From the NCBI GenBank assembly GCA_963850905.1, contig CAWKMU010000004.1, forward strand, positions 576,001 through 640,000: DNA of 64,000 nucleotides, read 5' to 3'. The stretch comes from an uncultured Gemmatimonadales bacterium. Lineage in GTDB: Bacteria; Gemmatimonadota; Gemmatimonadetes; Gemmatimonadales; Gemmatimonadaceae. Shown in pieces: positions 13,325 to 15,709 of the stretch; the first letter of the stretch is position 1; each line of letters opens with the position of its first letter. The translations under genes were made by a program, and so were the position numbers. Under the pieces are notes generated by a model. That model did no database searches. It worked only from the letters and a program-made list of their open reading frames with translations, and was not told the DNA's origin.

Positions 13325-13565
13325 GGAGTCACCGGTCTTTCGTCGAGGGGCATCTGGCGACGAGCCATTGCGGCTCGCGCAAGGATACGGATTGCCGAGA
13401 CCGCCCATGACGCGGCGCCAGCGGCTCGGCCTCGGTGGTCAGCTCGTGAGGATCATCGCTAGGAAGTCGCTCACGAGAAGACTAGTTCCCGCCCAAGCTC
13501 CGTGTCTCCTTTGTCCTTTCTCCATCGCTCCTCTCTAATTTTGGCCGCCGTGCGGCCACAAATCC

Positions 13566-14114
13566 CTACTTCGCGTCAGTCAGCCGTTCTCGCATCGTCC
13601 GGTAACGTTGAAGCGCACCATCAATAATGGGGAATGCTTTCTCCGCCGGTTGAATCGCATCCACCTCGACCGCCTTCCCTTCGAGTTGCTTGTAATCTTG
13701 AAAGAAGCGGCGCAGCATGAGCAGGCGATGCGGCGGCATGTCCGCGGCCTCACGATACCCATCAAATTCGGGATCAGCCGTGGCGACCGCAATGATTTTG
13801 TGGTCCATCTTCCCGGTATCGATCATGGCCATGAGGCCAATCGTGCGCGCCTTCACCAGCGTGAGGGGCACGACACTCTCCTGGCAGAGAACCAGCACAT
13901 CGAGCGGATCATCGTCTTCTGCCAACGTCTGCGGAATGAACCCGTAGTTGGCGGGATAATACACGGCCGAATACAAGACACGATCCATCTTGATCAGCCC
14001 GCTCGCCTTGTCCAGCTCGTACTTGACGCTCGAGTGCAAGGGAATTTCGATCACCGCGGTGAACTCTTGCGGCAGGCCGTCCCCCGGGGAGATGTCGTGC
14101 CAGGCGTGCGCCAC
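13566..14114 (-). CDS. ppa: Family I soluble inorganic pyrophosphatase
   Basis: KYELDK, YPANYGFIPQTLAEDDDPLDVLV, DHKII, FFQDYKQLEGK; GTG start after GGAGG. Confidence 0.95.
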   Translation of the reverse strand: MAHAWHDISPGDGLPQEFTAVIEIPLHSSVKYELDKASGLIKMDRVLYSAVYYPANYGFIPQTLAEDDDPLDVLVLCQESVVPLTLVKARTIGLMAMIDTGKMDHKIIAVATADPEFDGYREAADMPPHRLLMLRRFFQDYKQLEGKAVEVDAIQPAEKAFPIIDGALQRYRTMRERLTDAK

Positions 14115-14253
14115 CTGAACCTCCGGTTTTGGCAATCATTAACTTTATAAAGGTGAGGTCAGCCGCGCGCGCGCCTTTGCGCGTTATTCTGATTCGCCAT
14201 CTCTCGACGTAGCGCTCGTTCGCGCAGTTTGGCCAACAGAGGGGAGCAAACTC

Positions 14254-14865
14254 ATGGATCGCGTCCTCGACCTGTGGTCTGACGTCGTTTGACCCTTTTG
14301 CTACCTCGGCTCGGTCTGGGCCGAAGCAGCTGCACGAGAACTCCAAGCGACGCTACGCGTGCTTCCGTTCGAGTTGCACCCGGAGACGCCGCCCCAAGGA
14401 GCACCGAAGCCAATTCCACCCGCGGCCTGGCCGCAGGTCCGCCGGCGTCTTGAGGGACTGGCGCGTGAGGTCGGTCTCCCGATCGATCCACCGGATCGGA
14501 ACGTCAACTCCCGCTTTGCGCTCGAGACCGCGGAGCTCGTGCGCGCCAAGCGCGGCGACGGCGCCGCCGGCGCCTTTCATCACGACGTCTCGCGCGCCTT
14601 CTTCACGCAGCGCGCCGACATCGCGAAACGCAATGTCATCATTCCCATCGCCGAAGGCCATGGCGTCTCCGCGTCGGACGTCGACGACGCGTGGCGGGAA
14701 CGCCGGTTTCGCCAGGGTGTCGACGCGTTCGTTGAGCAAGCGCGCATGGCCGGCGTCACCGGTGTGCCGGCGATGGCCTGGCCGAATCAGCGCGCCATCC
14801 TCGGCATGATGCGCCCCGAAGACCTCGTCGTACGCCTAGGCGACCAACCAGCCTTGGACCGGTAG
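14254..14865 (+). CDS. DsbA/FrnE-like thiol-disulfide oxidoreductase, probable selenoprotein (UxxC)
   Basis: ATG 14254 after GGGGAG RBS gives MDRVLDLWSDVV*PFCYLG in frame with PFELHP...GVTGVP; in-frame TGA at 14290-14292. Confidence 0.85.
14299..14330 (+). promoter_or_regulatory. Bacterial SECIS-like hairpin
   Basis: TCGGCTC-GGTCT-GGGCCGA stem-loop starting 13 nt after the UGA, with a GGUCU loop. Confidence 0.7.
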
Positions 14866-14876
14866 GGGCGAACCAT

Positions 14877-15476
14877 TCAGAAGGCCCGCGGATCGAGCAC
14901 GCTGCCAGTTTGCTTCCCTTCCACACTTGCCACGTAGGCCCGAGCTACATCAGCGGCAGGTTGCCCGGCACTTGGATCCTGCCCGCGAGCGCGCAGTGTC
15001 TCGGATACCGACGTCGGGCTGACGACATTGATGCGTTGCCCCCGCGGCAACTCGAGCGCTGCCGAGCGCGCGAATCCCTCGAGCCCCGCGTTGACCAGAC
15101 TGACGGCGGCCGCGCTTCGCGCTCCCTCCCGAGCCAATGAGCCCGCCGTGATGGTGAACGAGCCGCCGTCGGTGACCGAGGCAATGCCCAACCGCACGAG
15201 GTTCACCTGTCCCATCAGCTTGCTGTTCAGGCTGAGGGAAAAATCGGCATCGGTGAGTTCAGCCAGCGGCTTGAACGCTACCAGTCCGGCGGCGCAGACC
15301 ATGGCGTCGACGCGCCCGACCCGAGCGTACAACGCACGGATCGATGCGGGGTCGCTGATGTTCACCTGCTCAGCCGTGTCGCGATTGCTCGCGAGGACGA
15401 GGTCGTGCCGGCCCGCGAGAGCCGCAACAATCGCTCGACCAATGGTGCCGCTCGCACCAACGATGAGTATGCGCAT
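14877..15476 (-). CDS. Short-chain dehydrogenase/reductase
   Basis: GASGTIG Rossmann motif, SKLMGQVNL, RINVVSP. Confidence 0.9.
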   Translation of the reverse strand: MRILIVGASGTIGRAIVAALAGRHDLVLASNRDTAEQVNISDPASIRALYARVGRVDAMVCAAGLVAFKPLAELTDADFSLSLNSKLMGQVNLVRLGIASVTDGGSFTITAGSLAREGARSAAAVSLVNAGLEGFARSAALELPRGQRINVVSPTSVSETLRARGQDPSAGQPAADVARAYVASVEGKQTGSVLDPRAF

Positions 15477-15709
15477 GGAGGGCGAATCCCCTCAACGGTG
15501 ACAGGGTTCCACAAAGCCAACTCGATCCAAGCTGACTGCGCGAACGCTTCGCCGGCCGTTGCTTGCATCTCATCCTAGAACCAGCTGAGATGCTCGGCCC
15601 CCAATCATAGGCTCGTCGCGAGGCACACTCATCTATCCCTACGCCAGGGCAATGGGACGTGTCTCACGTCAGTTTGGCGACACGCGGAGCATCTGAACGC
15701 TTCAGTCAC

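Follow-up and report, generated by a model that had tools for sequence, protein, structure and literature searches.

Selenocysteine (Sec)-containing DsbA-like proteins have been catalogued since 2005, when the Sargasso Sea selenoproteome yielded nine sequences of a new selenoprotein family, named 'DsbA-like protein', assigned to COG2761 and possessing a UxxC motif (PMC1088965). The family has been relisted (PMC1794560, PMC9312934), was counted as 45 proteins in 41 organisms (PMC5029168), and is 'form 1' of a 2026 review, which describes its function as largely uncharacterised (PMC13188914). The Gemmatimonadaceae are not named in the main text of three of these sources (PMC13188914, PMC9312934, PMC5029168). 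Literature searches gave nothing on Gemmatimonad selenoproteins by title or start of abstract and, for 75Se with a bacterial DsbA selenoprotein, a chemistry review.

The closest described protein by fold is FrnE of Deinococcus radiodurans, a disulfide reductase/isomerase of the cytoplasm that has CP(W/F)C as its active site; loss of FrnE sensitises cells to cadmium and diamide (PMC8945050). A C-terminal CxxxxC aids regeneration of the FrnE active site, although some FrnE proteins, such as those of D. maricopensis and S. roseofulvus, are described as being without this tail (PMC8945050).

The window analysed here, a 64,000-nucleotide stretch from an uncultured member of the Gemmatimonadaceae, contains a gene that adds a member to this catalogued selenoprotein family, and no new kind of system. 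The best explanation, with a probability of roughly 0.93, is that UGA is read as Sec within a DsbA/FrnE-type protein of 203 residues that has a thioredoxin fold and is predicted to act in the cytoplasm as a disulfide reductase/isomerase, with U-P-F-C as its active site. A sequence-only reading had proposed a hidden selenoprotein at this position, starting from the premise that Sec-containing DsbA-like proteins are known, which the catalogues cited above bear out. Like the 'DsbA-like protein' family (form 1), the protein belongs to PF01323 and has a UxxC motif with one predicted Sec at the first position, a bacterial SECIS (bSECIS) element just 3' of the UGA, and widespread Cys homologues; compared with the family as described, it falls in a distinct soil clade with the signature U-P-(F/Y)-C-Y-L-G-S-V-W.

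A reading frame through UGA

The frame from ATG 14254 reads MDRVLDLWSDVV, then the TGA, then PFCYLG, and remains open until a TAG at 14863-14865, the TGA being the single departure from a table 11 reading over 203 residues (Table 1). The sequence-only reading had placed this ATG, with a ribosome-binding site, in frame with TGA-PFCYLG, and the Shine-Dalgarno-like GAGGGGAG is indeed found 7 nt ahead of it; none of the 37 open codons upstream is an alternative ATG, GTG or TTG start. The same reading held that the ORF call lacks the active site and that the gene would be mis-annotated as truncated. Both points stand: the standard-code ORF begins at a GTG with no obvious Shine-Dalgarno sequence and is devoid of the motif, and it is this 168-aa form that the protein collection holds (P0002). 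Against the Pfam DSBA profile (PF01323, cut-off 25.6 bits) the readthrough protein scores 88.5 bits over profile positions 2-189, and the short form 54.3 bits over positions 36-189; no NCBIfam model matched the readthrough protein. A scan of 13400-15700 found no sigma-70-like promoter site. The divergent intergenic region between the pyrophosphatase and selenoprotein genes contains a GC-rich hairpin with a T-rich tail (14165-14184), of a type that is no commoner than in shuffled sequence.

Table 1. Features of the selenoprotein gene in the window (upper seven lines) and other genes of genome G000 with in-frame TGA at known or predicted Sec positions
Feature	Position	Strand	Basis or remark
Shine-Dalgarno-like GAGGGGAG	14239..14246	+	purine-rich; ATG 14254 begins 7 nt later
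DsbA-family (FrnE-like) selenoprotein gene, 203 aa with UGA readthrough	14254..14865	+	translation, Pfam, phmmer, model
In-frame TGA, predicted Sec13, position 1 of UxxC (U-P-F-C)	14290..14292	+	aligns with first Cys of FrnE CPWC
Cys16, sole cysteine; predicted resolving residue	14299..14301	+	sequence
Bacterial SECIS-type hairpin	14306..14324	+	7-bp stem, GGUCU loop
168-aa standard-code ORF reported by gene callers, without active site	14359..14865	+	GTG start; identical to P0002
G-V-P loop (Pro172), thioredoxin-fold cis-proline position	14761..14769	+	P172 at least 90% conserved in alignment A1
SelD, in-frame TGA	G000:C3:3126738	+	family check
AhpC/TSA protein, UxxC	G000:C3:1623924	+	family check
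PrxQ/BCP-like protein, TxxU, N-terminal signal-like stretch	G000:C3:2191485	-	family check
UGSC-family protein (above cut-off)	G000:C3:28673	-	family check
Formate dehydrogenase alpha	G000:C3:3161897	-	family check
Thioredoxin-like domain with NHL repeats, TGA at first Cys (TYG-U-INC, UxxC), strong hairpin	G000:C3:763039; L198	-	family check
Predicted 196-aa selenoprotein APT-U-GEC (UxxC), lipoprotein-like N-terminus, downstream hairpin	G000:C3:2581683; L196:571-1158	-	

The UGA codon and its hairpin among homologues

Homologues were collected at 169 loci, namely the best 80 from genomes, the best 80 from metagenomes, and nine from 60 relatives. At the 168 loci in which the codon for residue 13 could be mapped, it is TGA in 50, TGC in 77 and TGT in 41, with no other codon found, in a sample biased by one search pattern that contains the Cys form and by protein databases that show full-length proteins for the Cys form only. 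The alternation between Cys and TGA for which the sequence-only reading had called is therefore present at this codon, and its placement of the TGA exactly at the first Cys of the family agrees with the alignment to CPWC of FrnE. At 50% identity or more, 22 of the 24 loci have TGA (this gene included) and two have TGT; without this gene, TGA is found in 21 of 23. The TGA recurs in at least 49 other loci from several phyla. All 22 TGA-form loci of the genome collection are in genomes with selA (21 above the cut-off; in one genome the selA match is partial, at a contig end), as compared with seven of 22 Cys-form genomes, which were hand-picked from 58 and of which many are incomplete.

The opposite explanation, that the TGA is a true stop, in a pseudogene, by sequencing error, or upstream of a 168-aa ORF that is the only product made, draws on the presence of the 168-aa form in databases and on the 120 protein matches listed, of which 110 lack a CxxC within the first 45 residues and ten possess it (at the protein level). 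It would have to account for a codon that alternates only with Cys codons across phyla and tracks with both the hairpin and selA, and for a start at 14359 that would remove the first strand and the active-site helix of the structural model. Sequencing error had been raised as a check, and the TGA is kept in a contig from run X3 (assembled contig rather than raw reads, possibly from the source sample of the assembly), which spans 14231-14399 with no differences; this was the one run of four in which contigs covered the TGA. A true stop is thus extremely improbable, and recoding of the UGA as Sec, judged from these comparisons, is very likely.

Two observations concern more distant loci. In a second, distant DsbA-like group, found in the same taxonomic order as the host, L029 (genome G040) has TGA at this codon where L032 (genome G006) has TGC (AEYY-U-PWC and AEYD-C-PWC, respectively); G040 is 95% complete and has the TGA form, yet no selA above the cut-off was found in it. 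L055, a TGA form, falls among Dormiibacterota rows; its contig bears the label Candidatus Saccharimonadales, and the genome, which has selA, is possibly mislabelled or a mixed bin.

The hairpin proposed from the sequence, TCGGCTC/GGGCCGA with a GGUCU loop, is present: the 5' arm (14306-14312) starts 13 nt after the UGA, the loop (14313-14317) begins 20 nt after it, and the 3' arm (14318-14324) completes seven pairs, including one G-U. Published limits for bSECIS elements are a loop of 3-9 nt with G in position 1 or 2, an upper stem of 4-16 bp, a loop 16-37 nt from the UGA, and an energy of -7.5 kcal/mol or lower (PMC13188914). With a 5-nt loop beginning GG, 7 bp, a distance of 20 nt and energies of -10.4 to -11.4 kcal/mol, this hairpin lies within every one of them. 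Taken alone, it is weak evidence and statistically not unusual: folding z-scores are 0.0, -0.29 and -0.60 in windows of 48-101 nt (-2.06 for the 25-nt core), and among 1500 sampled TGAs that end long frames in the same genome, 179 pass a general bSECIS-type filter and 54 are followed by hairpins that equal or exceed this one in length and stability (in 16 of these 54 the loop is at 16-24 nt). An Rfam search of 14100-14500 gave no match at E<=10. The sequence-only reading had likened the loop to the apical loop of the E. coli fdhF SECIS; in this genome, the Sec codon of fdhA is followed by a hairpin with an identical GGUCU loop and closing pairs.

It is comparative evidence, not folding statistics, that places the hairpin beyond chance. 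In 155 distinct rows, after duplicates were collapsed, all seven pairs are kept by 20 of 20 close Sec rows and 13 of 26 distant Sec rows, and by none of 109 Cys rows (0/2 close, 0/107 distant); close homologues carry both the TGA and the hairpin. Across 43 Sec rows, 88.7% of cells are paired versus 85.3% when shuffled, and none of 500 shuffles reached the paired fraction; across 39 Cys rows (at least 29.5% identity) 61.9% are paired, and 269 of 500 shuffles did so. Four pairs have changed on both sides among the 43 Sec rows. Because the shuffle controls ignore relatedness among rows, and because the stem lies within conserved codons and owes part of its conservation to the protein, it is the difference between Sec and Cys rows that tells more. 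The GSVW encoded over the stem is kept in all 22 close Sec rows, whereas four of ten full-length Cys proteins depart from it, which fits a relaxed constraint after a presumed reversion to Cys. The 13 distant Sec rows without this exact register include several that fold as shifted hairpins; Chloroflexota-type Sec homologues (L054, L057, L098, L100, L110, L168 and L180) have a shifted register with a loop of 3 nt rather than 5 nt.

Fold, active site and predicted role

The structure predicted with Cys in place of Sec (pLDDT 95.8, pTM 0.92) has the UPFC motif at the start of a helix formed by residues 14-29. Its best Foldseek match is D. radiodurans FrnE (E 2.4e-12, TM 0.84), followed in order by SCO1869, an HCCA-isomerase-like protein (3fz5, TM 0.80), a kappa-class glutathione S-transferase (GST; TM 0.77), YjbH, DsbM (TM 0.69) and Rv2466c (TM 0.61), with periplasmic DsbA proteins lower still (TM about 0.5-0.6). 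FrnE is the sole match to PDB sequences by phmmer (E 1.5e-7 to the D. radiodurans protein). The only redox residues are Sec13 and Cys16, and Cys16 is likewise the only cysteine in all the close Sec homologues listed. Pro172 presumably adopts the cis state.

The resemblance to FrnE (DR_0659; PDB 5CNW, 5CO3, 5COH, 5CP1 and 5XWH) extends from the fold (TM 0.83-0.85) to the motif D-x-W-S-D-x-x-[C/U]-P-[W/F]-C-Y, the FEL-x-P and GVP segments, and the lack of a signal peptide. CP(W/F)C near the N-terminus, a trait of the FrnE subfamily (cd03024), appears here as UPFC at residues 13-16, with Sec for Cys. The differences from FrnE are the replacement of the first Cys by Sec, an identity of only about 23%, a length of 203 aa as compared with the 260 residues of the deposited FrnE chain, and the absence of the C-terminal CxxxxC that many, but not all, members of cd03024 possess.

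A real selenoprotein of this kind might instead be a reductase coupled to small thiols, or a small-molecule enzyme, akin to DsbM (5HFG/5HFI), Rv2466c (4NXI/4ZIL), HCCA isomerase (2IMD) or kappa-class GST (1R4W). These proteins share the thioredoxin fold with a helical insertion, such folds come close behind FrnE in the structure search, and the missing CxxxxC means that recycling would need another donor. However, their structural scores are below that of FrnE, none of them matches in sequence at E<=0.001, the motif fits CP(W/F)C as described for FrnE, and the tail is also missing in some FrnE proteins (PMC8945050). This alternative is unlikely, though by no means negligible, and an FrnE-like disulfide reductase role, once recoding is granted, is probable by structural modelling and analogy; the substrate and catalytic direction are predicted from about 23% identity to FrnE, in a fold that several enzyme types share.

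The database name 'predicted DsbA family dithiol-disulfide isomerase' and the weaker structural matches to periplasmic DsbA would suggest an exported oxidase that forms disulfides. A motif at residue 13 leaves too short a stretch before it for a signal peptide, the hydropathy scan (maximum 19-residue hydropathy 1.17) reveals no extended hydrophobic segment and no transmembrane segment, cytoplasmic FrnE is much the closer match in fold, and a scan of flanking ORFs detected no DsbB-like neighbour. Export is accordingly a very unlikely alternative, and the protein is predicted to be cytoplasmic.

According to the known bacterial pathway, a complex of SelB, GTP and Sec-tRNA(Sec) would bind the hairpin 13-32 nt downstream and deliver Sec at the UGA, and translation without selenium would halt after 12 residues. 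By analogy with the fold and with FrnE, the selenolate of Sec13 at the start of helix 1 would attack a substrate disulfide, and Cys16 would resolve the mixed bond, leaving an internal selenenylsulfide. Because a C-terminal CxxxxC relay is absent, an outside reductant is proposed to recycle the enzyme, either thioredoxin reductase/thioredoxin or a low-molecular-weight thiol. Such an enzyme would probably serve to restore oxidised thiols of proteins when the cell is exposed to thiol or metal stress.

Descent, Sec machinery and other predicted selenoprotein genes

A quick unrooted tree was built from 110 of 164 rows, the other 54, all distant Cys rows, having been thinned out (five short rows and duplicates had been dropped earlier). 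It places the gene within a clade of 28 rows (SH-aLRT 100), most of them Sec forms, which come from Vulcanimicrobiota/Eremiobacterota, Rhodospirillales and unlabelled metagenomes. The nearest rows are four Cys proteins (P0003-P0006, 78-82% BLAST identity), the nearest named relatives are Vulcanimicrobiota, and the tree needs at least 13 changes between Sec and Cys, in either direction. Searches of 60 relatives and of 400 genomes from the phylum (up to seven candidates scored per genome) gave no orthologue with more than 36% identity, and this lack of a close orthologue suggests lateral acquisition as a possibility; distant TGA forms occur among the phylum genomes. In codon usage score and GC3 the gene is ordinary for its genome (about the 40th percentile), which lends no support to a recent transfer.

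On one side lies a divergent gene for an inorganic pyrophosphatase, and on the other a convergent gene for a short-chain dehydrogenase. Clustering of 558 ORFs from 23 close loci and the window, with frames overlapping the selenoprotein gene set aside, revealed no conserved neighbours (sharing by at most four loci), and Pfam, searched with 100 of the 122 flanking ORFs, gave assorted families, including a luciferase-like monooxygenase in three loci. The neighbourhood therefore offers no operon clue to the substrate, and the gene appears to stand alone without a conserved partner.

We put forward tentatively, and as rather less than an even prospect, that the FrnE-type selenoenzymes of this soil clade lack the tail because Sec replaces the C-terminal Cys relay, and that the gene, on its own and with a portable GGUCU SECIS, passes from phylum to phylum (Vulcanimicrobiota, Alphaproteobacteria, Gemmatimonadota) and repeatedly reverts to Cys. 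If so, near-identical natural Sec/Cys pairs (78-82% identical) would allow the gain from selenium in a cytoplasmic disulfide reductase to be measured. Close pairs of this kind would make a tidy test system for a family described as largely uncharacterised (PMC13188914), in which annotation stands in need of correction, the database forms of this gene and of most listed relatives being without the active site.

The genome (G000; 4.49 Mb in six contigs, 82% complete, 1.5% contamination) encodes the complete Sec machinery, as the sequence-only reading had supposed: profile searches identified selA (541.8 bits), selB (332.6 bits) and selD (374.9 bits), all above curated cut-offs, and a tRNA-Sec with a UCA anticodon is located at C3:3127737. 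The selD gene itself has an in-frame TGA and ends about 20 bases ahead of tRNA-Sec on the same strand (G000:C3:3126708-3127833), with selA and selB elsewhere. The machinery is on contig C3 and the selenoprotein gene on contig C4. A tmRNA is encoded on C4, as are tRNAs for Asp, Glu, Trp, His and Asn that were found on no other contig, C3 included; this fits C3 and C4 belonging to one chromosome. The seven SelA homologues that bear an organism name are from Gemmatimonadaceae (five), Gemmatimonadales (one) and Geminicoccaceae (one), which points to a member of the Gemmatimonadaceae as the likely host. Sec use seems to be common in this order-level lineage; among 61 genomes of the order, 50 have selA above the cut-off (a tally that includes this genome and the unpublished G016).

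A general reassignment of UGA to Trp, Cys or Gly, that is, a change of code rather than recoding as Sec, would equally leave the frame open under TGA readthrough. It is scarcely credible in a genome where tRNA-Sec is the only tRNA found with a UCA anticodon, at least 1500 long frames end in TGA, and in-frame TGAs, where the protein belongs to a known family, coincide with established positions of Sec (SelD, FdhA, Prx, Trx and UGSC).

Recoding as Sec would extend to at least five further genes of recognised families with in-frame TGA at known Sec positions (Table 1). Of ten Sec candidates examined, four were discarded as chance: neither L199 nor L203 matched a family, L200 consisted of two adjacent pilin genes, and L202 was a permease whose start follows the TGA. 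The list is a lower bound; the coding-score filter had excluded even the DsbA/FrnE-type gene (downstream score 0.15), which a motif-led rescan recovered. The predicted 196-aa protein (L196), with no Pfam match at 1e-5 and no NCBIfam match at 0.01, possibly represents a deiodinase-like or thioredoxin-fold family outside the profiles searched. In total, the analysis adds a Gemmatimonadaceae soil genome with the full Sec machinery and about 7-8 selenoprotein genes.
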